Assembly: GCA_043767805.1 (NCBI GenBank)
Contig: JAYUGC010000107.1
Location: forward strand, 1-11,981
From: Pseudomonadota bacterium
GTDB lineage: Bacteria > Bdellovibrionota > FAC87 > UBA2466
Direction: 5' to 3'
Length of the DNA stretch: 11,981 nt
Below the pieces are notes generated by a model, which made no database searches, had not been told where the DNA came from, and saw only the letters and a list, made by a program, of their open reading frames with translations. The position numbers and the translations under genes are program-made. Each line of letters starts with the position of its first letter. Within the stretch, counting starts at the first letter, position 1. Below, piece by piece: positions 3 to 10,785 of the stretch.

Positions 3-236
3 AGCAAATACTGCGACCTCATTCCCATTGGGCGCTACGCCCGGATGGCTGAGCGCAGCGGGGTGCCGGGCCTTCCGCCCCAGAGCTTGATTGAATCGAG
101 TCATCATCTTGCCGATTTTCTTAAGCCCACCTACGAGCTCTTGCGGCAAGAAATCCGTGCTGAAAAAGTACTGCATGCCGATGAGACCCCGCACCGGATG
201 CTGGAGGGGGATGAGAAATCACACTGGTACCTTTGG
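3..236 (+). pseudogene. IS66-family transposase (TnpC) internal fragment, 5'-open at the window edge and truncated at ~236
   Basis: Frame 3 from nt 3 reads SKYCDLIPIGRYARMAERSG...LADFLKPTYELLRQEIRAEKVLHADETPHRMLEGDEKSHWYLW. This matches the IS66 TnpC pattern KYxDHLPLxR...lhaDETp...YLW, which carries the first catalytic Asp. Similarity stops right after YLW (234-236), and the rest of ORF 45..698 is out-of-frame read-through. Confidence 0.85.
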
Positions 237-237
237 A

Positions 238-630
238 ACCGGCGAGGAGAAGACTCACATAGATGCGGTCCTCCAAGAGAATACCCAATTTGCCAAACTC
301 GAGCTCATCGAAGAAAGAATGCTCACCTTCTTCGACCAGCCCGACGAGGCCGCCGCCAAAACGGTGTTCGAGGAGATTGGCGACTGGATCTTCCAAGCTG
401 GATTCATCCCCCTCATGAGATGGATCCAAAGGCTCGAGAAGGGCTGGGATACCCTCAAGAACTACTTCCGCTACCGAGTCACCACGGGCGTCTCGGAAGG
501 CATCAACCGAGCCATCAAGGGACTCAAATGGCAGGCCTACGGCTACAAAGACATGGACTACTTCGCCCTCAAAATCCTACAAAAGTACGGCTACCTAAAC
601 TCCCGATACCACATGCTCTCCGACAAATAG
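238..630 (+). pseudogene. ISL3-family transposase, C-terminal fragment (N-terminal part missing)
   Basis: Frame 1 reads ...WDTLKNYFRYRVTTGVSEGINRAIKGLKWQAYGYKDMDYFALKIL..., the ISL3 C-terminal signature (TNxxxEGxNxxIKxxKRxAYGY/FRxxxxFxLKI). It stops at TAG 628-630. There is no credible start of its own, and the upstream part of ORF 91..630 is an alternative frame of the IS66 fragment. Confidence 0.85.
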
Positions 631-641
631 AAGAAAGAGCC
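620..641 (+). repeat. Possible right terminal inverted repeat of the ISL3 element (ends ...AAAGAGCC at 641)
   Basis: The sequence 11 nt after the transposase stop ends in AGAGCC, whose reverse complement begins GGCTCT, a common ISL3 terminus. The left end is absent, so the repeat cannot be paired and its inner boundary is approximate. Confidence 0.4.
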
Positions 642-814
642 TCGATCTTGTTCACGAACCATTCGTGCGTCTGCCGTAGTTTGTCCCCTTTTTCCTAACC
701 AACCCGTACACCGCCGGTATGCGCGCCCTACAGCCGGCCTCGCGCCGTGGACAGTCTCTTGCACAGAAGGCAGGTGCGCCGCCTTGTGAAAGACGGCGAA
801 GGAGTGTTCTGTCG

Positions 815-3800
815 TTGTTTAGGTCTGCCTTAAACCTGGTTTTTCTCGCCGCGCTTTGCCTCGCGTCTTTCGCTTGGGCTGAGGTAATCACCGTGCACTC
901 GGAGAGCGAGTGCGTCGATTTCTTCGTTAAGATCGCCCAGAACCATCCGACCACGGCCGCGACGGTCGATCGCCTTAAGGAATTTGCCCGCGTCCACAAC
1001 CTGCCGACCAAGATCGTCGAAGTGGGCCCGCCCGAACGCCGGGTGAAGCGTCTCATCGTGGGACTCAACTTCCACGACTGGAACCTCATGCAGGAGTACA
1101 TGAAGTGGTTCAACCTGGAATCGGCGGGCCGGCCCGATCTGGGCGGTATTCTGCCTCTCGAGTACGCGACCGAGATGGACCGGGCGAACGGAAAAAATTA
1201 CGTCGGAACGAATGTGCGCCCGCGCCCCAGCATGTCGGCGCCCATCTGGATGTTCGGCCGGGAAGACGTGCCCTGGCAGCAGTGGTGGGACGTCTCCGTA
1301 AAGCACCCCAAAGCGGTCGAGGCCGATTTGCCCATCATGGGCTTCTCGCATCTCATCGGCACGACGCCCGAACAGCAGAAAAACATCTGGGAATTCCTCT
1401 ACAACCCGGACAAACGCGCCGTGTGCAAGAGCACGAACTGCGTCGCCTGGCAGTCGCAAATCGAATTTGGCCATACCGATTTCAACATCCCTGAAGTCGA
1501 GCGTCAGTTTCTAGCCACCCGGCTCGGCTTTTCGCGCACCATGGAACATTCCGAGATGACTCGCCGGATGTTCCACTACGCCAATCAGGAACACGGCGCG
1601 ATGATTGCCTTCCTCAATGGGCAAAAGGGCATCGATGCCTTCAATAGCGATTTAGCTTCGCACCTTCCCCCGCCTCCGAAAAAATCTGCGCGGGAAGCCG
1701 TCAAAGGCATCACCTTCAGCCGCAATACGGAGTTGGATGAAGCTATTTCGAAGATCCCCGACATGCCCGGTGGCACTAAAGTGTTTTTGCCCATTGGCCC
1801 GGGCGCGAGCCCCGAGGGCATGGAAGCGCTCGCCGAGCTCGCAGCGAAATCCAACGGCGGCATCGACGTTCACGTTTTCGTAAACGGCGTAAGCGAACGG
1901 GTTTTCCAAGAAGGTCTCGATAAGGGTAAGGACAAGCTTCGCATCCACGCCCTCTTTCTCGGCGGAAACTTACGCAAGCTCCATTCCGAAGGCCGCGTCC
2001 ATCACATCCCGGGCTATCTCGGCGATTTCGCGCATTACATGCGCGATCCCAACGAAAAAGATTTCCAGTACGACGCCATCATCGTGCGCGTGTCGCCGCC
2101 GGATGCAAACGGGCATTACAGCCTCGGGCCCAATAGCGATCTAGTCAAAACGGTGCTCGAGACTCGCCCCAACATCAAGATCATCGCCGAGATCAACCCG
2201 AACGTTCCCTTCACGACCGGCGACAACTTCCTGACCAAAGATCAAATCGCGGGAAGCTTCCATTCGACGACTCAGCTCGGCGGGCCCGCGGCCTTGCCCC
2301 TGACCAAAGTCGAGCAGAACATCGGCGAAAACCTGGCCGGGCTCATCGAAAACGGCGCGACCCTGCAAGTTGGTATCGGAAACGTCTTCGGTGGTTTACC
2401 CGAGGCGCTTAAAAACGCGGGACGCCGGGGCTTAAACATCTCGACTGAGATGATGGGCGATGATTTGAAGAAGATCGTCGAGAACGGCACGGCTCAGAAG
2501 GCCGAAACCACGTTTGGGTATGGCAGCACCGAGTTCTATAAATGGCTCGACCACAATCCCGACGTGGTCTTTAAGCCCACCGAAGTGATCAACGATCCCG
2601 CGCGGGTTTCCTCGATTCCTAATTTCCACGCGGTGAACACCGCGCTCCAAGTGGATCTCCATGGCCAGGTCAACGCGACCATGGGCCCTCAGGGGCGCAT
2701 CTCGAGTCCGGGCGGACAAGTGGAGTTCATGTCGGGCGCGTCTCGCTCCACCGGCGGAAAATCGATTATCGCCCTTCGTTCCACGGCTAAACAAGGCGAG
2801 CTTTCCACCATCGACGTGGATCTCTATGCCGGGCCCATCACCACGCCGCGCGAGTACATCTCTCACGTGGTGACCGAGTACGGCGTCGCCAAACTTTCCG
2901 GAAAGAGCGATCGGGACCGCGCGGTCGCACTGATTAACGTCGCCCATCCGAAATTCAGAAAGAGCCTCGCGAACAAGGCGGTCGAGAAAGGGATCATCAC
3001 CGCGGGAGACGTGAGTCATATCCGTTTCGACGTCGCCGAGATCAAGCCCAATAAAGATCACAAAGGTCCCGAAGGCCAGGAGAACAAGAAGCCTCCGACC
3101 GATCTTCCGGCGCGGGCGGATCATGAAGGCAATGTTCCCATGGCCGGCGGCGATCCCGTGCCTCAAACCCGCACGGCGGCGCCCGACGCCGATCCCAAAG
3201 CGGCGATCCTCAAGCAGTCGACGCTTCAGGGGAAGGACTTCAATTACAAGGTTTACGGCGAAGAAAACAAAGAAACGATCGTGCTCGTTCACGGCGTCGG
3301 CTCTTCCCTTTGGTCCTGGAAGGACATCGCTCCGCTGCTCGCCGATCGCTATAAAGTCGTCGTCTACGATCAGCGCGGACACGGAAAAACGCCGGATTCC
3401 GGTGAGAACTATTCTTCCACCGCCATGGCGGACGATCTTCGGGCACTCCTCGATCACTTAGGCATCAAGAAAGCGCACCTTCTGGGCCACTCCATGGGTG
3501 GGCGCGCGGTGGTTCGCTTCGCCGAGCGCTATCCCGAGCGCACGCACTCCGTTATCGTCGAGGACATGCACATGAAGGGATCCGGCACTGCCTCCCTGAA
3601 GCTTCCCGGAGTCCGCGTGCAAGCCGAAAAAATGAAAGCGGAGATCCCCGCGACTTTCGCCAGCGCCCCGGAAGCCAAAGCGAGGCTTTTGAATTACTTC
3701 CTTGAAGAGCAGGTGGAAGACATCCTAAAGCGCGCGGCTCACGATCCCGACGGCAAAGTCACGCTCGCGGGCCGGCCCGAAGTCCCCGAGCTGTGGCTGC

Positions 3801-5071
3801 ACCAAGGCCTCTCGGAAGACATGACGGAAGCGCTACGCAACGTACGATCCCCCATCGTCTTCATTGGCGCCGATCCTTCCAGACCCGACGCGGCCTTAAA
3901 GGGCGCGGGCGTGGATCACATCCGTGAGACCCGGCCGGATATCCCGATTTGGCAGCTCCCTGGCACCGGTCACAAAGTGCATAACGATCCGAAGTTCATG
4001 GAAAGCGTCCGCTACTTCCTGGGGACGACTAAAACCAGAGCGGTCACCGAACCGGCTCGCGAGGCGCTCATCAAAGCCGCAAAGGAAGCGGGCGTTCCCA
4101 TCTTCATGCGCCAAGTGGGCGATCGCGAGCTTCCCGTCGTTCTCTTGAACGAGGAGACGTATCCCAAGCTGAAGCCGTTTCTGGATGGCTCCATCGGAAC
4201 CGGAGTAAAGATGTTCCCCTTCACGAACCAAGGTACGGACCACGGTCTCTTCCGCGTGGGCGACAACCTTCTCGATTTTTACTGGCCCGACGATCCGAAC
4301 AAATACGGCCAGCTCCATAACACGGGCGTGTACGCGCTTCCTTTGCAGACTTATCTTCCGCGCCGGAACAACAACTCGGAGCGCATCATCGAAGCGACGT
4401 ACGCTTTGACGCCCGAAGAGCGGCAGACGGCCGAGTATTACCACCGTATGCGCCGAGCCGGCGTGTTCCGCGCGAAGTACGAGTTCAACAATTACGACCC
4501 GGCTTACGGGCAGCGTAAGCACGTGCTCGATGAAGGTTTCCAGAACTGTTATAACTTCGGCGTCAGCGCGTGCAACCAGAGCCACGCGAATAACATGAAA
4601 ACGCAGCTTTATCAGATCGGCGTCCGCGACGTTCCTAAGCTGCTCGCCACGCCTGAAGTAAAAGAGTTCCAAAGAAGGGCGAAGGAACAGCTCCTCGCCA
4701 TCAATCGCAACGATCCCGCGCTGGCCGATCCCAAGGCCGAAGAGAAAGTGCTCAACATTCACATGTTCGACAAGCCCGAGTACTTCGAGCTGCTTAAGAA
4801 CGTAATCCCTGAGAACTCCAGCCCCGAGAACCGCACGAAGTTCATCAATTATCTGGTGGGGATCGATGCCGTGCAGCAGTACGATCAGATCACCACCGAT
4901 CTGAGCCTCGGCGGAAACTTCTGGAATTTCAACCACCCCCGCGCCACAGCCATCGTGGTTTGGGACACTCCGCTACAAAACGAAGCGTTCAAAAACGGGA
5001 CTTACGAAATCGGCGGCTCGAACCCCGCGTACCAGTTCCGCAACCCTTCTCTGAACCGACCGTTGCCCTAG
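815..5071 (+). CDS. Large predicted secreted multidomain protein: signal peptide + unknown domain A + acetyl-CoA hydrolase/CoA-transferase + linker + alpha/beta hydrolase + unknown domain B (~1418 aa)
   Basis: Uninterrupted ORF 719..5071. The preferred start is TTG 815, 10 nt after AAGGAG (799-804), giving MFRSALNLVFLAALCLASFAWA|EV (signal peptide, AxA site). CoA-transferase motifs at ~1730-3030: VSPPDANGHYSLG, IIAEINPNVP, IENGATLQVGIG, STEM (Glu 2447-2449), VNTALQVDLHGQVNA, GGQVEF, GGKSIIALRST, VVTEYGVA, ALINVAHPKFR. Hydrolase motifs at ~3230-4025: VLVHG, YDQRGHG, GHSMGG (Ser 3491-3493), GTGH (His 3971-3973). Confidence 0.9.
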   Translation: MFRSALNLVFLAALCLASFAWAEVITVHSESECVDFFVKIAQNHPTTAATVDRLKEFARVHNLPTKIVEVGPPERRVKRLIVGLNFHDWNLMQEYMKWFNLESAGRPDLGGILPLEYATEMDRANGKNYVGTNVRPRPSMSAPIWMFGREDVPWQQWWDVSVKHPKAVEADLPIMGFSHLIGTTPEQQKNIWEFLYNPDKRAVCKSTNCVAWQSQIEFGHTDFNIPEVERQFLATRLGFSRTMEHSEMTRRMFHYANQEHGAMIAFLNGQKGIDAFNSDLASHLPPPPKKSAREAVKGITFSRNTELDEAISKIPDMPGGTKVFLPIGPGASPEGMEALAELAAKSNGGIDVHVFVNGVSERVFQEGLDKGKDKLRIHALFLGGNLRKLHSEGRVHHIPGYLGDFAHYMRDPNEKDFQYDAIIVRVSPPDANGHYSLGPNSDLVKTVLETRPNIKIIAEINPNVPFTTGDNFLTKDQIAGSFHSTTQLGGPAALPLTKVEQNIGENLAGLIENGATLQVGIGNVFGGLPEALKNAGRRGLNISTEMMGDDLKKIVENGTAQKAETTFGYGSTEFYKWLDHNPDVVFKPTEVINDPARVSSIPNFHAVNTALQVDLHGQVNATMGPQGRISSPGGQVEFMSGASRSTGGKSIIALRSTAKQGELSTIDVDLYAGPITTPREYISHVVTEYGVAKLSGKSDRDRAVALINVAHPKFRKSLANKAVEKGIITAGDVSHIRFDVAEIKPNKDHKGPEGQENKKPPTDLPARADHEGNVPMAGGDPVPQTRTAAPDADPKAAILKQSTLQGKDFNYKVYGEENKETIVLVHGVGSSLWSWKDIAPLLADRYKVVVYDQRGHGKTPDSGENYSSTAMADDLRALLDHLGIKKAHLLGHSMGGRAVVRFAERYPERTHSVIVEDMHMKGSGTASLKLPGVRVQAEKMKAEIPATFASAPEAKARLLNYFLEEQVEDILKRAAHDPDGKVTLAGRPEVPELWLHQGLSEDMTEALRNVRSPIVFIGADPSRPDAALKGAGVDHIRETRPDIPIWQLPGTGHKVHNDPKFMESVRYFLGTTKTRAVTEPAREALIKAAKEAGVPIFMRQVGDRELPVVLLNEETYPKLKPFLDGSIGTGVKMFPFTNQGTDHGLFRVGDNLLDFYWPDDPNKYGQLHNTGVYALPLQTYLPRRNNNSERIIEATYALTPEERQTAEYYHRMRRAGVFRAKYEFNNYDPAYGQRKHVLDEGFQNCYNFGVSACNQSHANNMKTQLYQIGVRDVPKLLATPEVKEFQRRAKEQLLAINRNDPALADPKAEEKVLNIHMFDKPEYFELLKNVIPENSSPENRTKFINYLVGIDAVQQYDQITTDLSLGGNFWNFNHPRATAIVVWDTPLQNEAFKNGTYEIGGSNPAYQFRNPSLNRPLP

Positions 5072-5075
5072 GCGC

Positions 5076-5086
5076 TGTGGTATCCT
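5076..5086 (+). promoter_or_regulatory. Possible extended -10 promoter (TGTGG-TATCCT) for the 5102 gene
   Basis: TGnTATCCT lies at 5078-5086 in the 30-nt gap between the two CDSs. There is no SD before ATG 5102 and no correctly spaced -35. Confidence 0.35.
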
Positions 5087-5101
5087 TAATGCCACTCCCC
5101 T

Positions 5102-6748
5102 ATGCTATTTCGCGAAGAATTCACGCTTCTGCTGGTGTGCGTCGCCACCGGGATTCTCCTTCATTTCGTGCCGTATGACGGCGAGAAGGTGGCCCTCTAC
5201 CGGTTGCAGGAAAAGCTGCGGCAAGAGCCCGAACTCACCGAGAAGATCTCGACCCAGTGCTCCAGCCTCGAGTCCGCGGATAACCGCGCGGCCGCCCGCT
5301 TCGTTTCGAAGAGCTTTCGCTTACCGAGCCCCGGGACTTCCGGCGCCGGCAAATGTCTCGTCGTGTTGGAGAGCAGCCAGACCCAGCGCTTCTTCGTCAG
5401 AAACTACGCGCACTTCGCGCTCGCCGTGCAAGGCGAGAACGGAAACATGGTTTACCGGCGCGACTACGACATCGAGTTCCCGCGGCCGCTCGCGCTTTTG
5501 CCGCTCGCCGTGTTTCTCCTCTCCTTGGTCTGGGGCTTTAAGCCCTGGGGTCTCGCGTGGACGCTCGGCACCTACGTGCTACTGCTCGGCGGCGGCAATC
5601 TCATCCGCGCGCTCGAGTTCGGCGTGAAGAGCACGCTCATTACTTTCGGCGGAAGCCAGCCCCTCCTTGGCACCCTGCTCGTCTTGTTCTGGGTCGCACT
5701 CCATCGAAGCCGGCGCGACCGAAAGCCCGCAAGACTCTATTCCGTAAAAGTCGAAAGCTGGATCAATAAGGTCCTCTCCGTGCTCCTGGGTCTTTGGAAC
5801 CCCGCGATTTTCACGGCGGCCTCGAAGCTCTTTCTGCCGTTCCGCGGCTCGCTCGCGCGCATCACTTTCTTCATGGACGCCCAGTTCTTCATCGTTTGCG
5901 GAAGTCTCTATCTCTTGGCCGCGGACTGGAGAAACCCGCGCGCTTTCGTGATGGAAAGCCTCCTCTTACCCCGGTATTTTTCTTTCGCGGCGGCGCTCTT
6001 TCTTTCTCTAGGCTATTGGACTCCCACGCCGAAGAAGCGAGCGATTGCCTGGCACCAGCTTCGTTTCTGGCGGGCGGCGGGCTTTGTCATCGCGACCGAG
6101 GGCCTGGCCTTCCGCTTTCCGGTGATGCGGGAAATTTCCACCGTCACTCGCGTCGGACTCTCGCTGATAGCGAGTGAGCTCGTGATGCCAAGAAGCATCG
6201 CTTGGCGCTCGGCGGTTCGAAGCTTCCTCCCCTGGGCGGCGATGCTTTTGGTGGCGACTTTCATCACGCTCCAGAGCGTGCAAGCCGGGGTCAGCGAATT
6301 GGTGCTCGTACTCTGGGAGCCGACGGCGCACCCGACGGCGGTCGCTCTCTTCACTTTCATCTCGGGCGTTTTCCTGGGCTTCCTCACCGGAAATTTCGCG
6401 ATCACCTTCTTCGCGCTTTACGGGGTACTCATCCGCTCGTTCGATCAGCCGCTGGTCAAAGCCGCGCTCATCGACGGCATTCTCGCGGGAAGCCTTCTCT
6501 CCCCATTCTCGCTCTTTAATCTTTTCTCCGCGGCGCAGTTCGGCCTCGACCTTCAAGAGCTCGTCCGCTTCCGCTTCCGTCAGCTCGCGGTACCGCTCAC
6601 CATCTCCACCATCATCTACGCCGTCTGCGCCATCAACTCGGTGGCCATCCTGCAACCGGTGACGTTCGTCTTCCTTTGCCTCGTCGCGCTGGCGACTCGC
6701 TTGAAGAAAAATGCGTGGACCTGGAGCGGCTTTACCCAAGCTCACTAG
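5102..6748 (+). CDS. Polytopic inner-membrane protein; C-terminal third resembles the ion-transporter (NhaC/DUF401-like) superfamily
   Basis: 548-aa ORF with an N-terminal TM helix, a ~100-aa soluble loop containing two Cys, then many hydrophobic segments. ISGVFLGFLTGNFAITF and GILAGSLLSPFS recall the IT-superfamily 'TG(T/S)' and 'GxxxSPxS' hairpin motifs. The family assignment is by eye. Confidence 0.7.
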   Translation: MLFREEFTLLLVCVATGILLHFVPYDGEKVALYRLQEKLRQEPELTEKISTQCSSLESADNRAAARFVSKSFRLPSPGTSGAGKCLVVLESSQTQRFFVRNYAHFALAVQGENGNMVYRRDYDIEFPRPLALLPLAVFLLSLVWGFKPWGLAWTLGTYVLLLGGGNLIRALEFGVKSTLITFGGSQPLLGTLLVLFWVALHRSRRDRKPARLYSVKVESWINKVLSVLLGLWNPAIFTAASKLFLPFRGSLARITFFMDAQFFIVCGSLYLLAADWRNPRAFVMESLLLPRYFSFAAALFLSLGYWTPTPKKRAIAWHQLRFWRAAGFVIATEGLAFRFPVMREISTVTRVGLSLIASELVMPRSIAWRSAVRSFLPWAAMLLVATFITLQSVQAGVSELVLVLWEPTAHPTAVALFTFISGVFLGFLTGNFAITFFALYGVLIRSFDQPLVKAALIDGILAGSLLSPFSLFNLFSAAQFGLDLQELVRFRFRQLAVPLTISTIIYAVCAINSVAILQPVTFVFLCLVALATRLKKNAWTWSGFTQAH

Positions 6749-6759
6749 GAAACCACAGA

Positions 6760-6930
6760 ATGAAGCTTCTTTTCTTTTTCTTGGCGCTCGCCACTTCGTT
6801 TGCCCTTGCCCAGGAACCCGAAGAGAAACCCGTCGTCGGCGTACCTGCTGCTTTAGACACTTTGGTCGCCGCCCTCAAAAAGGCGAAAGAAAACGTCGTT
6901 TGGCCGATCCCCGCCCCATTCGAGCCCTAG
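6760..6930 (+). CDS. Small secreted protein (56 aa) with signal peptide
   Basis: ATG 6760 follows AGGA (6747-6750). MKLLFFFLALATSFALA|QEPEEKP... is a clear Sec signal with an ALA site. It fills the gap between the 6748 stop and the convergent gene, with which it shares CTAG at 6927-6930. Confidence 0.65.
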   Translation: MKLLFFFLALATSFALAQEPEEKPVVGVPAALDTLVAALKKAKENVVWPIPAPFEP

Positions 6931-7454
6931 CTCCGGTACGTTTTCATGAGGTTCACGTAGTGACGCGCGCTGAAGGCGAGGCCTTCGCGCTCGGCTTCTG
7001 TCAGCTCAGCCACGATCTTCGCCGGACGGCCGAAGGCTTTCGTGCCCGACGGAATTTTCATTTTGGGCGTCACGAGGCTTCCCGCGCCGAGCAAAACGAA
7101 ATCGCCGATTTCCGCGCCATCCAAGATCTGGCTGCCCATGCCGATTAACGTCGTATTACCGATGGAGCAGGCGTGAATCACCGCTGAGTGGCCGATGGTC
7201 ACGTCGTCGCCGATTATACAAGGGTAAGCTTTGTAAGCGACGTGCACGAGGGTGCAATCTTGAATGTTGGTGCGCTTACCGACGCGGATGTAATTTACGT
7301 CTCCACGAAGCACCGAATTGAACCAGATGCTCGACTCCTCGCCGATCTCGAGATCGCCGTAAACATGCGCGCCGGGCGCGATGAACGCGGAAGGATGCAC
7401 CTTCGGCGTCTGAAACCGGTGCGGAAACATCGCCTTCAAATCGACGTCAGACAT
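6927..7454 (-). CDS. Gamma-class carbonic anhydrase family protein (YrdA/CaiE/PaaY-like hexapeptide-repeat protein)
   Basis: AFIAPGA..GD..IG..SSIWF..VLRGD.N.I.VG.RTNIQD..LVH; IG..VTIGH.A.IH.C.IG...LIGMG. The three metal-binding His and the left-handed beta-helix repeats are present. Its start overlaps the miaB stop by 8 nt. Confidence 0.93.
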   Translation of the reverse strand: MSDVDLKAMFPHRFQTPKVHPSAFIAPGAHVYGDLEIGEESSIWFNSVLRGDVNYIRVGKRTNIQDCTLVHVAYKAYPCIIGDDVTIGHSAVIHACSIGNTTLIGMGSQILDGAEIGDFVLLGAGSLVTPKMKIPSGTKAFGRPAKIVAELTEAEREGLAFSARHYVNLMKTYRS

Positions 7455-8796
7455 GAGCTTCCATCCCCCGCGCTACCCGAGGCGCGCCCGTATAGTAGCC
7501 GCGCAAGTTGGAAGCGTGCCCTTCGGTGATTTCCACGTCGATAATCTTGCCTTGGCAGGCCTCGCCCGCGTTCATGACGTGCACGAGCTTCCATTGCGGC
7601 GTGCGCCCGGAAAAATACTTCTTCTTTTTATCGAGCCCCTCGATGAGCACGGGGATCCTCTTGCCGATGAATCCGGCGTTCTCGCGATCGATGCCTTCTT
7701 GCAGCACGGCATTCGCGCGCGCGAGCCGATCCGCTTTAACCGCTTCGGGAATTTCTTCCTCGTAAGCAAAAGCGCGCGTGCCCGGGCGAGGTGAGTACTT
7801 AAAGAGGTACGCTTGTGTGAAGGCGACCTGACGCAGGACCGTCAAGGTGTCCTGAAACTCTTCCTCGGTCTCGCCCGGAAACCCGACGATGACGTCCGTC
7901 GATAAAGAGATCTCGGGGCAATGCTTACGAAGGGCGTCGATCTTGGCCAGATAATCCGCGCGGGTATAGAGCCGCGACATGCGCTTCAAGACGCGATCGT
8001 TACCCGACTGAAACGGCAGATGAAGCTGCGGACAAAGCTTTTCGACGCGCCCGAACTGCTCGATGAGATCTTGGCCGAGATCGCGCGGATGGGACGTCAA
8101 ATAACGGATACGCTCGACGCCCGGAATCTCGTTCGTCTGCTCGATGAGTTGAGCCAAAGTGTGCGGCGTACCCTTGCCGTAGGTATTGATGTTCTGGCCG
8201 AGGAAGGTGATTTCCTTCGTGCCGCGGTGAATGACGTTGCGAACGTCTTCCAGAATTTCGGGAATCGCGCGGCTCTTCTCGCGGCCACGCACGAAGGGAA
8301 CGATGCAGTACGTGCAGAAATGATCGCAGCCCTTGATGATGGTGAGAAATTCCACCGGACGGGCGTTTAAAATTTTCGCGGGCTCTGAGTAGAGCCGGCC
8401 ACCGTCGTCGAACTTCGCTTCGACGACGCGTTTTCCTTGATTCACCACGGAGTCGATGAGCTCACCGACGCGCGTGACGCTATCGGGACCGAACACCAAA
8501 TCGAGATGCGGCACGCGCTGTAAAAGCTCGCGGCCCATGCGCTGACCGAGGCAACCCGAAACGCCGATGACCATGGCGGGGTTCGCGTCCTTCAAAGGCT
8601 TCAACTGGCCGAGAAGCGTCAGTACTTTGTTCTCGGACTTGTCGCGGATGCTGCAGGTATTGAGTAAAACCACGTCCGCGCCCCGGAGCTCTTCGCTCAA
8701 GGAATACCCCTTCTCGGAAAGAACCGCTTTCATGCGGTCCGAGTCGTAAACGTTCATCTGGCAGCCGAACGTTTTGATGTGGACGCTTTTTGACAT
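7447..8796 (-). CDS. miaB: tRNA-2-methylthio-N6-dimethylallyladenosine (ms2i6A37) synthase MiaB
   Basis: UPF0004 domain (TFGCQMNVYDS, NTCSIRDKSENK, VSGC), radical-SAM motif GCDHFCTYC followed by IVPFVRGREKSR, LLGQN-type motif FLGQNINTY, TSHPRD, HLPFQSG, DVIVGFPGET, YSPRPGT and a C-terminal TRAM region. CQMN and TSHP favour MiaB over RimO or MtaB. Confidence 0.96.
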   Translation of the reverse strand: MSKSVHIKTFGCQMNVYDSDRMKAVLSEKGYSLSEELRGADVVLLNTCSIRDKSENKVLTLLGQLKPLKDANPAMVIGVSGCLGQRMGRELLQRVPHLDLVFGPDSVTRVGELIDSVVNQGKRVVEAKFDDGGRLYSEPAKILNARPVEFLTIIKGCDHFCTYCIVPFVRGREKSRAIPEILEDVRNVIHRGTKEITFLGQNINTYGKGTPHTLAQLIEQTNEIPGVERIRYLTSHPRDLGQDLIEQFGRVEKLCPQLHLPFQSGNDRVLKRMSRLYTRADYLAKIDALRKHCPEISLSTDVIVGFPGETEEEFQDTLTVLRQVAFTQAYLFKYSPRPGTRAFAYEEEIPEAVKADRLARANAVLQEGIDRENAGFIGKRIPVLIEGLDKKKKYFSGRTPQWKLVHVMNAGEACQGKIIDVEITEGHASNLRGYYTGAPRVARGMEAHV

Positions 8797-8864: not shown

Positions 8865-9311
8865 ATGGAAAACCAGCCCCCCACCTCACCCCGCTTGGCC
8901 CCTTGGCTGGCGGGCTTGGTCACGGTCCAAATGGCCATGGCCGGCCTCCTTTATGGGCTCTCCAGCCTGCTTAACCGGGGAACGACGTCGGGCGGAATCA
9001 CCGCGGTCGGACATTTTCTGGGGGCCCAAACCTTGGGCTCACTTCTCGAAACGAAGCACCCCGGCAAGGCGCGGCCTCTACGGCACCTGCTTTCTCTCTG
9101 CGCCATGACCTTTCAGGTCGCCCTCGGGCTCGTTTACTACCTGGCTTTCGGCCTGCCGGACTTAGGTCCCTCCGTGGATCCGAAGAAGATGGGCATGCTC
9201 GCCTTCATCGTGATTCCGGTGACCTCGGGCCTGTCTTATGGATTCACCTGGCTGGGCCTCACGTCCGGCATCCGGGTCATGGAAAAACAACGAGCGAGGA
9301 TGAAGAAATGA
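8865..9311 (+). CDS. Hypothetical membrane protein (148 aa, about 4 TM segments)
   Basis: Start moved to ATG 8865 (MENQPP...) because the track start at 8790 overlaps miaB and the promoter region. It has hydrophobic segments and a basic C-tail, and its stop overlaps the next start (ATGA 9308-9311). Confidence 0.75.
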   Translation: MENQPPTSPRLAPWLAGLVTVQMAMAGLLYGLSSLLNRGTTSGGITAVGHFLGAQTLGSLLETKHPGKARPLRHLLSLCAMTFQVALGLVYYLAFGLPDLGPSVDPKKMGMLAFIVIPVTSGLSYGFTWLGLTSGIRVMEKQRARMKK

Positions 9312-10300
9312 TTTCCTTTCTCTCCCCTGAACGACAAAACCGCGGGCTCGCCCCGAGCTTCGTGCCCAAGACCACGCTTTGGCTATCCGCCCCCGAGGAC
9401 GGCGCCTTGAGAGCGGAAAGGGACGCCGTCGAAGCGCTACTCGCCAAAACCACCGGCTACGCGCACGCAGTCGCCCTCTCGAGCGGCTTCGCGGCCCTAC
9501 AAATCGCCTTGAAAGCCCTTCGCCTGCCCCCGGGTTCCGAGTGCCTCGTGGCCTCGCCGACGGCAAACGAAGCGGCCTCGGTCCTCAGGCTGAAGCCCCT
9601 TCTACTCGACCCGACTTCGCCGCTGACCGCGACGGAAGTCATCGTGCGGCTCACCCCTGCGGTGCGCGCGGTGGTGGTCTCGGCCCCCTTCGGCCGTCAG
9701 GCCGATCTGGAAGCGATTCGCAAAGTGTGCGCGCCCGCCGGCGTTTATGTGGTCGAGGAAAGTGTTTTGGGCCTTCCGAAGGGAAAACAGAACGCGGCTC
9801 TTCTTTCCTTTTCGGCGTGCTCTCTTTTATCCGTGCCGGGCCAAATGGGAGCGCTCCTTACCGACGATCCGATCATGGCGACCCGCGCGCGCGAAGCCCG
9901 GGGACTTTGGCAAGCGGACGCCGATCTCATGTCTTGCGCCTTGATACAGGCAAAGCTCCCTAAGCTCCCCAGCTGGCTATCGCTCCGCCGAAGCATCGCT
10001 CAGTGGTACCTCGCGGCTTTTGAAACGGAGTTCGTGCGCGGCCGAATCGGCCTGCCCGCCTGGCCGGAAAACCCCGCGACCCACGCCTGGGAACAATTCG
10101 CGGTGGGCACCGCCGAGCCGCAAAAGCTCAAAGAGAAACTCCTCCGGGAGGGCGTCGAGACCAACGTTCCGCTCGCCGGTAAGCCCTTTCTCGCCCTTCC
10201 TCTCTATCCCGAGCTCTCTGGCAAGGAAGTACAGTTCGTGGTAGAGCGCATGCAATCGTGTCTGAACCGCGCTTCCACATCGTCCTCCATCAGCCTGTAA
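9308..10300 (+). CDS. DegT/DnrJ/EryC1/StrS aminotransferase-fold protein, degenerate (PLP lysine absent)
   Basis: Family scaffold motifs: HAVALSSGFAALQIALKAL..PG.E, LTPAVRAVVV...FG..ADLEAI...C......VVEE, G..GALLTDD, KL..L......RR.IA..Y, LALPLYPEL...EV..VV. The canonical EDAAQ reads EESVL and SFxxxK reads SFSACS. Confidence 0.85.
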   Translation: MISFLSPERQNRGLAPSFVPKTTLWLSAPEDGALRAERDAVEALLAKTTGYAHAVALSSGFAALQIALKALRLPPGSECLVASPTANEAASVLRLKPLLLDPTSPLTATEVIVRLTPAVRAVVVSAPFGRQADLEAIRKVCAPAGVYVVEESVLGLPKGKQNAALLSFSACSLLSVPGQMGALLTDDPIMATRAREARGLWQADADLMSCALIQAKLPKLPSWLSLRRSIAQWYLAAFETEFVRGRIGLPAWPENPATHAWEQFAVGTAEPQKLKEKLLREGVETNVPLAGKPFLALPLYPELSGKEVQFVVERMQSCLNRASTSSSISL

Positions 10301-10785
10301 TCCCGCAAAACACGGGCTCCATCGCCCGACTTTCGGCGTGCACCGGGGCTCAGCTGCACCTCGTGCATCCCTTGGGATTTAAAACCGACGACGCCGCCGT
10401 GAAACGCGCCGGCCTCGACTACTGGGAACATGTGGCGGTCCGGGAGCACGAGAGCTGGGAAGCTTTTGTGCAGAAGGAAAAACCCGCTCATCTGGCTTTT
10501 TTGAGCAAGTTTTCCACGCAGCCCTATACCGAGATCCCCTGGGATGCTTCGCCGCTCTATCTGATTTTCGGCAGTGAGACCCGCGGTCTTCCGAAGCGGC
10601 TCCATGACGCGCATCCGAATGATTTCTACAATATTCCCATGCGAACGAACCTCGTCCGCAGCCTCAACCTCGCGCAAGCCGCCGGCATCGTTTTGTACGA
10701 AGGCCTGCGGCGGAACGAGTTTCAGACCATCGGCCCATCTCAGGGACATGTCGCGGCCCGCGCCAGCGGACCCGAGGATTTCTAA
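10258..10785 (+). CDS. trmL: tRNA (cytidine/uridine-34 2'-O)-methyltransferase TrmL (SPOUT family)
   Basis: HIVLHQPVIPQNTGSIARL, LHLVHPLGF, KRAGLDYW, FGSETRGLP, IPM...RSLNLAQA..IVLYE. The GTG start overlaps the upstream gene by 43 nt. Confidence 0.94.
   Translation: MSEPRFHIVLHQPVIPQNTGSIARLSACTGAQLHLVHPLGFKTDDAAVKRAGLDYWEHVAVREHESWEAFVQKEKPAHLAFLSKFSTQPYTEIPWDASPLYLIFGSETRGLPKRLHDAHPNDFYNIPMRTNLVRSLNLAQAAGIVLYEGLRRNEFQTIGPSQGHVAARASGPEDF

Follow-up and report, generated by a model that had tools for sequence, protein, structure and literature searches.

The window analyzed in this study, an 11,981-nucleotide stretch of a Bdellovibrionota genome (contig JAYUGC010000107.1 of assembly GCA_043767805.1), carries on its forward strand a gene of 1418 codons whose product unites a predicted signal peptide, an N-terminal domain without annotation (N-domain), a family I CoA-transferase, a linker, an alpha/beta-hydrolase and a second domain without annotation at its C-terminus (C-domain) in a single chain (Table 1). 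Judged by comparison with its relatives, this protein brings together, in one lineage-specific fusion, the two or three genes of an operon that is conserved in Bdellovibrionota. What appears to be new is the presence of known catalytic modules in an exported, lineage-restricted system together with two conserved domains that lack annotation. The analysis shows the gene to be real and supports its anatomy with much higher confidence than its function. A first-pass annotation, made from the sequence letters, had recognized the central modules but mentioned neither the export signal nor the origin from an operon nor the restricted taxonomy described here, and in the literature, which was covered mostly outside subscription journals, we found no description of an exported CoA-transferase or of such an operon.

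The uninterrupted open reading frame (ORF) of about 1418 residues that had been claimed previously is borne out by a forward frame (719-5071) that is free of stop codons across 1450 codons, a property with a chance probability of about 3e-22 at the GC content of the window (58.9%). In this frame, translation from TTG815, which is preceded by a Shine-Dalgarno-like sequence, leads to the 1418-residue protein, and the in-frame upstream ATG719 lacks such a motif. Relatives match all four parts of the protein within the single frame 815-5071, and the gene has an even GC content throughout (0.54-0.62). A scan of positions 400-7600 revealed no sigma-70-like promoter, and terminator-like sites were at background level (11 compared to 8.7 +/- 3.3).

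The properties of the CoA-transferase are reflected in strong similarity to enzymes of known structure. Both halves of the acetyl-CoA hydrolase/transferase module, which had been noted for its retained STEM glutamate, are detected by Pfam (PF13336 AcetylCoA_hyd_C at residues 570-722 with E 2.3e-50; PF02550 AcetylCoA_hydro with E 3e-6 and 27.8 bits at a cut-off of 24, in a separate scan of residues 343-572). Alignments with 4-hydroxybutyrate CoA-transferases of known structure extend over residues ~320-724 (2oas, E 1.4e-57; 3eh7, E 1.7e-56; 3gk7, E 1.4e-48 for residues 320-721), and these structures together with Yersinia RipA (3qli) match both halves of the fold with E-values between 1.4e-57 and 2.1e-39. 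The catalytic Glu545 of the sequence ISTEMMG (nt 2447-2449) aligns with the glutamate of the TE(L/M) motif in 2oas and 3eh7 and occurs without exception in 36 family rows, as counted in an alignment of 40 rows that includes some duplicates of one protein from two sources and in which only rows covering the respective column were considered. The motifs GIGN, TEM.GD, GGQV[ED]F and RSTAK are near invariant across the same rows. The window domain has the glutamate and the motifs GIG, GGQ and STA in common with the 4-hydroxybutyrate enzymes, whereas differences concern the immediate sequence context, with GIGN[VI]FGG and GGQVEF in the window family compared to GIGAIPDA and GGQMDF in 2oas, and the general organization, since the 4-hydroxybutyrate and butyryl-CoA:acetate enzymes occur on their own in the cytoplasm, as proteins of 434-476 residues, whereas domains of the window type are predicted to be exported and always follow an N-domain. 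Equivalog-level specificity was not reached in a comparison to TIGR03948 (173.3 bits at a cut-off of 674.8) and TIGR03458 (66 bits at a cut-off of 659). By its fold, motifs and catalytic glutamate, the domain is assigned to family I, with no named specificity. Enzymes of this family operate by ping-pong catalysis, which proceeds via a glutamyl anhydride and subsequently a glutamyl-CoA thioester, and Glu249 of RipA has been described as the active-site glutamate forming the CoA thioester (PMC3180442).

Members of the same CoA-transferase family are also found in other multi-domain proteins of about 1000 residues (P0012-P0016), although with unrelated partners, which include a histone-deacetylase-like domain (PF00850) and a GNAT domain (PF00583), without N-domain, C-domain and hydrolase modules and with an identity to the window protein of 28-32% over 22-30% of the query. 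In a further protein (P0011), the CoA-transferase is fused to periplasmic-binding-protein domains.

The second known module, which had been identified by its GHSMGG sequence and a distal histidine, is likewise supported by matches of residues 817-1060 to Abhydrolase_1 (PF00561, E 1.6e-25) and Abhydrolase_6 (PF12697, E 5.9e-22), with an additional match to Hydrolase_4. The nucleophile Ser893 is located in GHSMGG (nt 3491-3493), His1053 in GTGHKVH (nt 3971-3973), and Asp1020 is a candidate for the acid, as judged by eye from the alignment. His1053 aligns with a histidine in all four hydrolase-bearing relatives, and GHSMG is kept in the first hydrolase domain of P0004-P0007. The catalytic residues of both known modules are thus, as far as the alignments indicate, intact and conserved. 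Esterases in the PDB match the domain at about E 1e-17, and it shares its fold, the G-H-S-M-G-G elbow and the distal histidine with PcaD, RutD, MenH, BioH-like esterases and the protein of PDB entry 7c4d. The best hits to such families reach 77-82 bits at cut-offs of 239-307, and the window domain differs from generic members by being fused and predicted to be exported. We thus classify the hydrolase as a generic Abhydrolase_1/6 member whose substrate is not assignable from sequence. An assignment as PHA depolymerase was rejected, since its score for NF050089 (54.5 bits at a cut-off of 300) does not exceed that for many other esterase families. By eye, the second hydrolase domain that is found in P0004-P0007 either contains glycine in place of the nucleophilic serine (GEGLGA, GVGDGA, GVGDGS) or, in P0007, shows no recognizable elbow; this second domain may be inactive. 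The Pro/Lys/Asp/Ala-rich segment that had been noticed ahead of the hydrolase is confirmed as a window-specific linker containing 10 proline, 9 alanine, 7 lysine and 6 aspartate residues in 67 positions, a stretch that none of the nine relatives in the alignment contains.

The two domains at either end of the protein had been described as uncharacterized brackets of the known modules. This view holds with respect to annotation, since neither matches a Pfam family at E<=10 or any NCBIfam entry, but both turn out to be conserved families, in which His, Cys and Arg residues are invariant, rather than mere brackets. The C-domain belongs to a large and mostly stand-alone family, for which an exhaustive HMMER search with residues 1074-1418 in 1.84 billion representatives yielded 101 clusters at E<=1e-3, 39 of which persist at E<=1e-30. 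A word-index search had returned nothing for this domain, which, in light of the 101 clusters, reflects a limit of its sensitivity and not the absence of relatives. Most members contain 350-400 residues, with the domain starting after about 40-60. His1143 (nt 4241, His70 of the domain) and Cys1245 (nt 4547, Cys172 of the domain) are invariant in all 68 aligned members, and conservation reaches 90% or more for the domain residues Asp69, Gly71, Arg74, Asp81, Tyr136 and Arg140. The lack of annotation extends to the family: a Pfam scan of 19 members found no match in the 12 that contain no recognizable partner domain, no Pfam family occurred in more than two of the 68 members at E<=1, and NCBIfam scans of seven members gave no match attributable to the C-domain. 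An AlphaFold2 model based on the 68-member alignment is confident (pLDDT 93.7, pTM 0.92), and Foldseek searches with this model retrieved no significant neighbor from the PDB (best E 0.039, TM<=0.18) or BFVD (best E 0.042).

C-domains are also encountered in other combinations. In one Halobacteriovorax-type protein (P0052, encoded at L020:8583-12848), a signal peptide is followed by a GlgA-like domain (TIGR02095, E 6.6e-41), a CBM48/GlgB N-terminal region and a C-domain; its gene is located directly after the L020 gene for the combined N-domain and CoA-transferase, which itself carries two hydrolase domains. A second protein (P0027) consists of a signal peptide, CBM48 and a C-domain. Other fusions link the C-domain to a circularly permuted ATP-grasp (P0098) or to an N-terminal region of 530 residues (P0030), for which no match was found among PDB sequences, Pfam and NCBIfam.

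The N-domain is characterized by Cys33 (nt 911), His179 (nt 1349) and by Cys204 (nt 1424) and Cys209 (nt 1439), latter two of which are part of the motif CKSxNC[IV]AW, and by Arg250, Arg251, His254 and His260. In the family rows, Cys33 is conserved in 34 of 34, His179 in 34 of 36, both Cys204 and Cys209 in 37 of 37, both arginines in 38 of 38 and each of the two distal histidines in 37 of 38. A search of PDB sequences with an N-domain profile gave no match (with N- and C-profiles, nothing below E 0.25), and an AlphaFold2 model obtained from nine sequences (pLDDT 71, pTM 0.78) found nothing significant in Foldseek (best PDB E 0.82). In all relatives seen, the domain is attached to a CoA-transferase. 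A search for stand-alone versions yielded three short hits, none of them convincing, which look like fragments: P0118 is 64% identical to L001, lies on a contig of equal length (11610) and is probably the frame-shifted N-terminal part of the L001 protein, P0117, from a contig of 3.3 kb, ends precisely where the domains join, and P0119 originates from a contig of 1.2 kb.

The relationship between the window protein and its homologues is evident in the distribution of these modules. Among 5.8 billion proteins, a word-index search limited to lengths of 779-2482 residues identified nine relatives, not counting ordinary CoA-transferases and the entry of the window protein itself. All nine share a constant core consisting of a signal peptide, N-domain and CoA-transferase and differ in their tails, which are absent (P0008-P0010, ~800 residues), contain two hydrolase domains (P0004-P0007, ~1320 residues) or a C-domain that follows directly (P0002, P0003). 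In a complementary approach, the N-domain motif CK[SA][DST]NC[IV]AW was scanned in one genome per species from 185,579 species, which resulted in 26 loci, all in metagenome-assembled genomes (MAGs). Of these, 25 are labelled as Bdellovibrionota lineages (Bacteriovorax, Bacteriovoracaceae, Halobacteriovorax, Bdellovibrio, Bdellovibrionaceae, Pseudobdellovibrionaceae, Bdellovibrionales and Bdellovibrionota), which span the classes Bacteriovoracia and Bdellovibrionia. The remaining one (L004) is found in a MAG of candidate division WWE3 with 57% GC, where the core precedes a C-family gene as in Bdellovibrionia-type loci, and its label is possibly a binning error. Bdellovibrio bacteriovorus has no record among the 26 loci, although the strict search pattern could have missed a diverged copy. 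In B. marinus SJ, a published table labels the region BMS1866-1878 'CoA transferases/aminotransferases' (PMC3526173), which makes it a candidate place for a copy in a cultivable species. The family ORF mostly comprises 743-790 residues and thus the core alone, with an ORF of 1320 residues in L020 and shorter ones at contig ends or in L001 and L016, where the frame changes.

In these loci, the components of the window protein are encoded as neighbors. In a survey by tblastn and HMM, a C-family gene on the same strand was found to touch or overlap the core in 22 of 26 loci, preceding it in 13 and following it in 9, and it is fused to the core in L001 and divergent at a distance of 1.1 kb in L024; none was found on the two short contigs L018 and L019. 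In L002, genes for hydrolase, C-domain and core follow each other with overlaps of 4 nt, whereas the hydrolase gene is close to the core on the opposite strand in L019 and fused in L020. The hydrolase of the window is 42.5% identical to the separate gene product of L002. It also occurs with a C-domain in a stand-alone protein of 659 residues that starts with a signal peptide (P0120), whose N-terminally truncated cluster representative (P0019) shows 43% identity over 616 residues to the second half of the window protein, a value that is equally found for the hydrolase domain itself. In two Bacteriovorax loci (L007:1693-5604 and L008:1319-5954), two tandem core genes follow a single C-family gene. 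In five to six closely related Bacteriovorax-type loci (e.g. L005:4650-7278), genes for a FabH-like KAS III, on the other strand, and for Endonuclease I adjoin, which may be plain synteny.

The order N-domain, CoA-transferase, hydrolase and C-domain was observed in the window protein only, both in the length-limited word-index search and among the 26 loci. The earlier remark that this four-module architecture was not recognized thus stands with respect to the order, but the protein is no isolated oddity, as it combines the genes of an operon. The nearest relatives, L001 (64% identity in the N-domain) and P0002 (66%), contain N-domain, CoA-transferase and C-domain without the hydrolase, from which we infer that the hydrolase and its 67-residue linker were gained or lost as a cassette. 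The singular order might also point to an artefact, either through chimeric assembly or through a sequencing error that joins separate genes by read-through, and the L001 locus (5090-8472), where the frame changes inside the CoA-transferase at about 6385-6397 as a consequence of a MAG error or of gene decay, illustrates that such defects occur in the family; there is also a fragment of an IS66 element upstream of the gene. However, homology continues in one frame over all junctions, and each junction type was found independently in other records, between CoA-transferase and hydrolase in P0004-P0007 and L020, between hydrolase and C-domain in P0019/P0120 and between CoA-transferase and C-domain in P0002, P0003, P0018 and L001, which together with the even GC content argues strongly against a chimera. 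The closest homologues of the C-domain of the window protein are other fused C-domains (P0018 and P0002, 54-55% identity), as would fit a common descent. We thus regard an artificial origin of the gene as highly improbable.

CoA-transferases are textbook cytoplasmic enzymes. In contrast, the window protein looks like it carries an N-terminal Sec-type export signal, as predicted from hydrophobicity and conservation. Its first 22 residues, MFRSALNLVFLAALCLASFAWA, precede the residues EV, and residues 1-19 constitute the sole strongly hydrophobic 19-residue stretch of the protein in a hydrophobicity scan, followed by a putative AxA-type cleavage site after residue 22 (AWA/E), which was recognized by eye. 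Full-length relatives begin alike, as for example MKKKLLSVLFSFVLFLTSHTAFA, and leaders are also found on every separately encoded component in relatives, including core, C protein, hydrolase and the GlgA-like fusion. With such a signal, a cytoplasmic multi-enzyme of CoA metabolism appears unlikely, which modifies the earlier proposal of a protein coupling ester or thioester cleavage to CoA transfer: the coupled chemistry still provides the best reading, but it would take place elsewhere. The alternative contained in the same proposal, a multi-activity effector, is possible. Two other routes of export were rejected. The cysteine following the leader is, by eye, not within a lipobox, as would be found in a lipoprotein. 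The sequence RRRRSVLSLF, which by eye would precede the hydrophobic stretch if translation started at ATG719, was dismissed as Tat signal in view of the lacking ribosome-binding motif of this codon and the short, Sec-type leaders of relatives.

A second N-terminal feature shared by the components of the system concerns the region directly following the leader. A crude regular-expression test of the first ~40 residues of ORFs from the family loci L002-L026 detected a cysteine no more than 30 residues past the hydrophobic stretch in all 49 family ORFs with a hydrophobic N-terminus, compared to 67 of 146 other ORFs, and a CxDLF-like motif at the start of a helix (C-x-[DN]-[LIV]-[FLI]) in 31 of 49 family ORFs compared to 3 of 146 other ORFs with hydrophobic N-terminus from the same loci. 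The shared cysteine is located one to about ten residues past the leader in every separately encoded component, from core and C protein to the hydrolase and the GlgA-like fusion. This element could be a docking helix, a site of disulfide formation or a sign of common ancestry. It would be compatible with a scenario where the N- and C-domains are not catalytic but instead serve as targeting, docking or chaperone-like modules for the delivery of two ordinary enzymes, with their cysteines engaged in disulfides in an oxidizing export compartment. However, domains that were internalized by fusion lack the shared element yet retain Cys1245, which is invariant also in fused C-domains without an N-terminal cysteine partner (window, P0002, P0003, P0018, P0120), and the invariant His1143 adjoins a near-invariant aspartate, with Arg, Tyr and Arg residues near-invariant as well, in a pattern more typical of an active site. 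A purely non-catalytic role of both domains thus appears very unlikely to us.

Based on these features, we tentatively propose that the window protein and its operon-encoded counterparts form an exported complex for the processing of acyl esters and thioesters, which would act on prey-derived acyl-CoA and esters, a reading to which we assign a likelihood slightly below even. The prevalence of predatory lineages, to which 25 of 26 core loci belong, suggests a link to lifestyle, and since an exported enzyme would encounter CoA thioesters only if they were derived from prey, we infer prey acyl-CoA as substrate. The site of activity would lie outside the predator cytoplasm, either in the periplasm of the predator, in the compartment of the invaded prey or within the prey. 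In this location, the hydrolase would cleave esters, and the CoA-transferase would take acyl groups from prey acyl-CoA by way of the glutamyl anhydride and the glutamyl-CoA thioester and either exchange or hydrolyze them. The His/Cys domains of N- and C-type might accept or hydrolyze acyl groups via an acyl-S-cysteine, and as a net effect, the activated acyl pool of the prey would be harvested or collapsed. The single-chain fusion would fix the stoichiometry of partners that elsewhere are produced from translationally coupled genes. A complex prediction of the CoA-transferase (residues 300-740) with the C-domain, run without controls, gave a score of 0.00 and speaks neither for nor against such a complex.

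Several observations weigh against this proposal. The export signal was judged from hydrophobicity and by eye only, and to our knowledge CoA is found in no periplasm, which makes the assignment of prey acyl-CoA as substrate an indirect one. Numerous esterase and lactonase families match the hydrolase about equally well, all of them far below their cut-offs. The acyl-S-enzyme is a guess, given that Pfam, NCBIfam, PDB sequence profiles and Foldseek link the His/Cys domains to no protein of known function, and the C-x4-C and H-x5-H arrangement of the N-domain could equally constitute a metal site or disulfides. Finally, the Halobacteriovorax-type fusions of the C-domain with glycogen-synthase-like and CBM48 modules hint at glucan rather than small thioesters as target.

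The latter would be reconciled in a mechanism where acyl groups, taken either from acyl-CoA or, by the hydrolase, from lipids, are transferred by His/Cys domains working as acyltransferases onto a polysaccharide of prey or predator, such as peptidoglycan or alpha-glucan. Besides the joining of C-domains to glucan modules in two relatives (P0052 and P0027), such polymer acylation finds a precedent in Bdellovibrio, which acylates the wall of its prey with lipid, according to a review citing Thomashow and Rittenberg, 1978 (PMC10482364). However, this classic acylation stems from B. bacteriovorus, a species which was not retrieved by our strict pattern. Glucan modules were seen in just two fused forms, and the window protein contains no carbohydrate-binding module detected by Pfam. 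We thus consider the acylation of polymers to be distinctly unlikely. A more mundane role would be the housekeeping of the predator's own envelope, with the protein participating in periplasmic lipid or envelope remodeling and the CoA-transferase fold being re-used for a substrate other than CoA. Export by itself does not imply prey, the family is chromosomal and resides near ordinary genes, such as FabH in Bacteriovorax loci, and the flank of the window encodes MiaB, TrmL and a gamma-carbonic anhydrase. In contrast, the near-invariant motifs of the CoA-transferase argue for the canonical chemistry and ligand, and the strong representation of predatory lineages again suggests a relation to lifestyle, so that we view this role as quite unlikely.

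A further question concerns the relationship between the two unannotated domains. A BLASTP comparison of N- and C-domains gives nothing (E 2.2), whereas hhalign reports a probability of 49% and an E-value of 1.8e-4 for 48 columns, which include the tail of the signal peptide, the cysteine and the first helix-strand unit. Without leaders, the probability decreases to 2.4% for a different, C-terminal stretch, and it is 0.6% in a forced long alignment. With the C-family HMM, core proteins are hit in their leaders only, and the N-profile matches the internal start of the C-domain in P0030 (31% identity over 32 columns, E 0.054). The three weak local similarities are colinear, and predicted helices and strands follow each other in parallel order, which might indicate that the two domains diverged from a single fold. 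This idea is unproven; no test is significant, and part of the best score originates from signal peptides. A language-model search retrieved clusters bearing TseH or the IcsB middle domain (IcsB_M) and one unnamed cluster of 242 residues for both domains. TseH, the IcsB middle domain and CLN5, which we take to be papain-like acyl-handling enzymes, resemble N and/or C with scores of 0.82-0.88, and these matches, being below 0.9, serve as leads only. A conserved cysteine and histidine as in papain-like proteins are present in the C-domain, where the pair is invariant, and in the N-domain, but an assignment to papain-like, NlpC/P60 or IcsB/RID-type proteins finds no support in Pfam, profile or Foldseek searches of either domain, and the MARTX RID structure 5xn7 matches the C-domain model only with E 0.3 and a TM-score of 0.12.

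The exported GlgA-like synthase, which would meet its cytoplasmic-type substrate outside the producing cell, leads to an extended version of our proposal, where the operon would be a predator-to-prey effector system that is directed at the activated metabolites of the prey and not at its polymers. In such a system, the exported CoA-transferase would tap acyl-CoA, the Halobacteriovorax GlgA-like fusion would require ADP-glucose, and the N- and C-domains would be diverged copies of a new His/Cys acyltransferase fold carrying an acyl thioester. As a joint claim, we regard this version as unlikely.

If the proposed processing of prey acyl groups is true, predators would process the activated acyl pool of their prey outside their own cytoplasm. 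Secreted enzymes of predatory bacteria also attract interest for antibacterial use. The fusion found in nature and the operon indicate which proteins work together, and the C-family, with its 101 clusters, a confident model and no structural neighbor in PDB or BFVD, offers a clean target for structural and functional work.

Table 1. Location and properties of features in the window (all on the forward strand)
Feature	Position	Strand	Properties
IS66-family transposase fragment	3..698	+	PF03050 E 5e-15, profile positions 15-122 of 284
Shine-Dalgarno-like GAAGGAG	799..805	+	9 nt 5' of TTG815, read from sequence
Whole gene: signal peptide, N-domain, CoA-transferase, linker, alpha/beta-hydrolase, C-domain	815..5071	+	1418 codons and stop
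Predicted Sec-type signal peptide	815..880	+	Residues 1-22, ...ASFAWA then EV
N-domain, family without annotation	881..1696	+	Residues 23-294
Family I CoA-transferase, 4-hydroxybutyrate/butyryl-CoA:acetate type	1697..3043	+	Residues 295-743
Pro/Ala/Lys/Asp-rich linker, window-specific	3032..3232	+	Residues 740-806
Alpha/beta-hydrolase domain	3209..4033	+	Residues 799-1073
C-domain, unannotated family, mostly stand-alone	4034..5068	+	Residues 1074-1418, 345 residues
548-residue polytopic membrane protein	5102..6748	+	At least 8 hydrophobic segments, 30 nt past the stop of the large gene

The environment of the fusion gene is distinct from that of its relatives, as none of the other genes of the window was found by tblastn in any of the 26 loci. 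The IS66-family fragment runs off the left end of the window and ends 116 nt before TTG815; it scores far below the cut-off of NF033517 and may bear on how the locus has moved. The polytopic membrane protein encoded downstream matches neither Pfam nor NCBIfam families and has no tblastn hit in the 26 loci. The remaining regions contain ordinary genes on the reverse (6927-8796) and forward strand (9308-10785), which encode MiaB (456 bits at a cut-off of 355), a gamma-carbonic-anhydrase-like hexapeptide protein (190 bits at a cut-off of 250), TrmL (165 bits at a cut-off of 191) and a DegT-family aminotransferase, which is short with 330 residues. The ORFs of MiaB and the carbonic-anhydrase-like protein overlap by 8 nt, those of the aminotransferase and TrmL by 43 nt.

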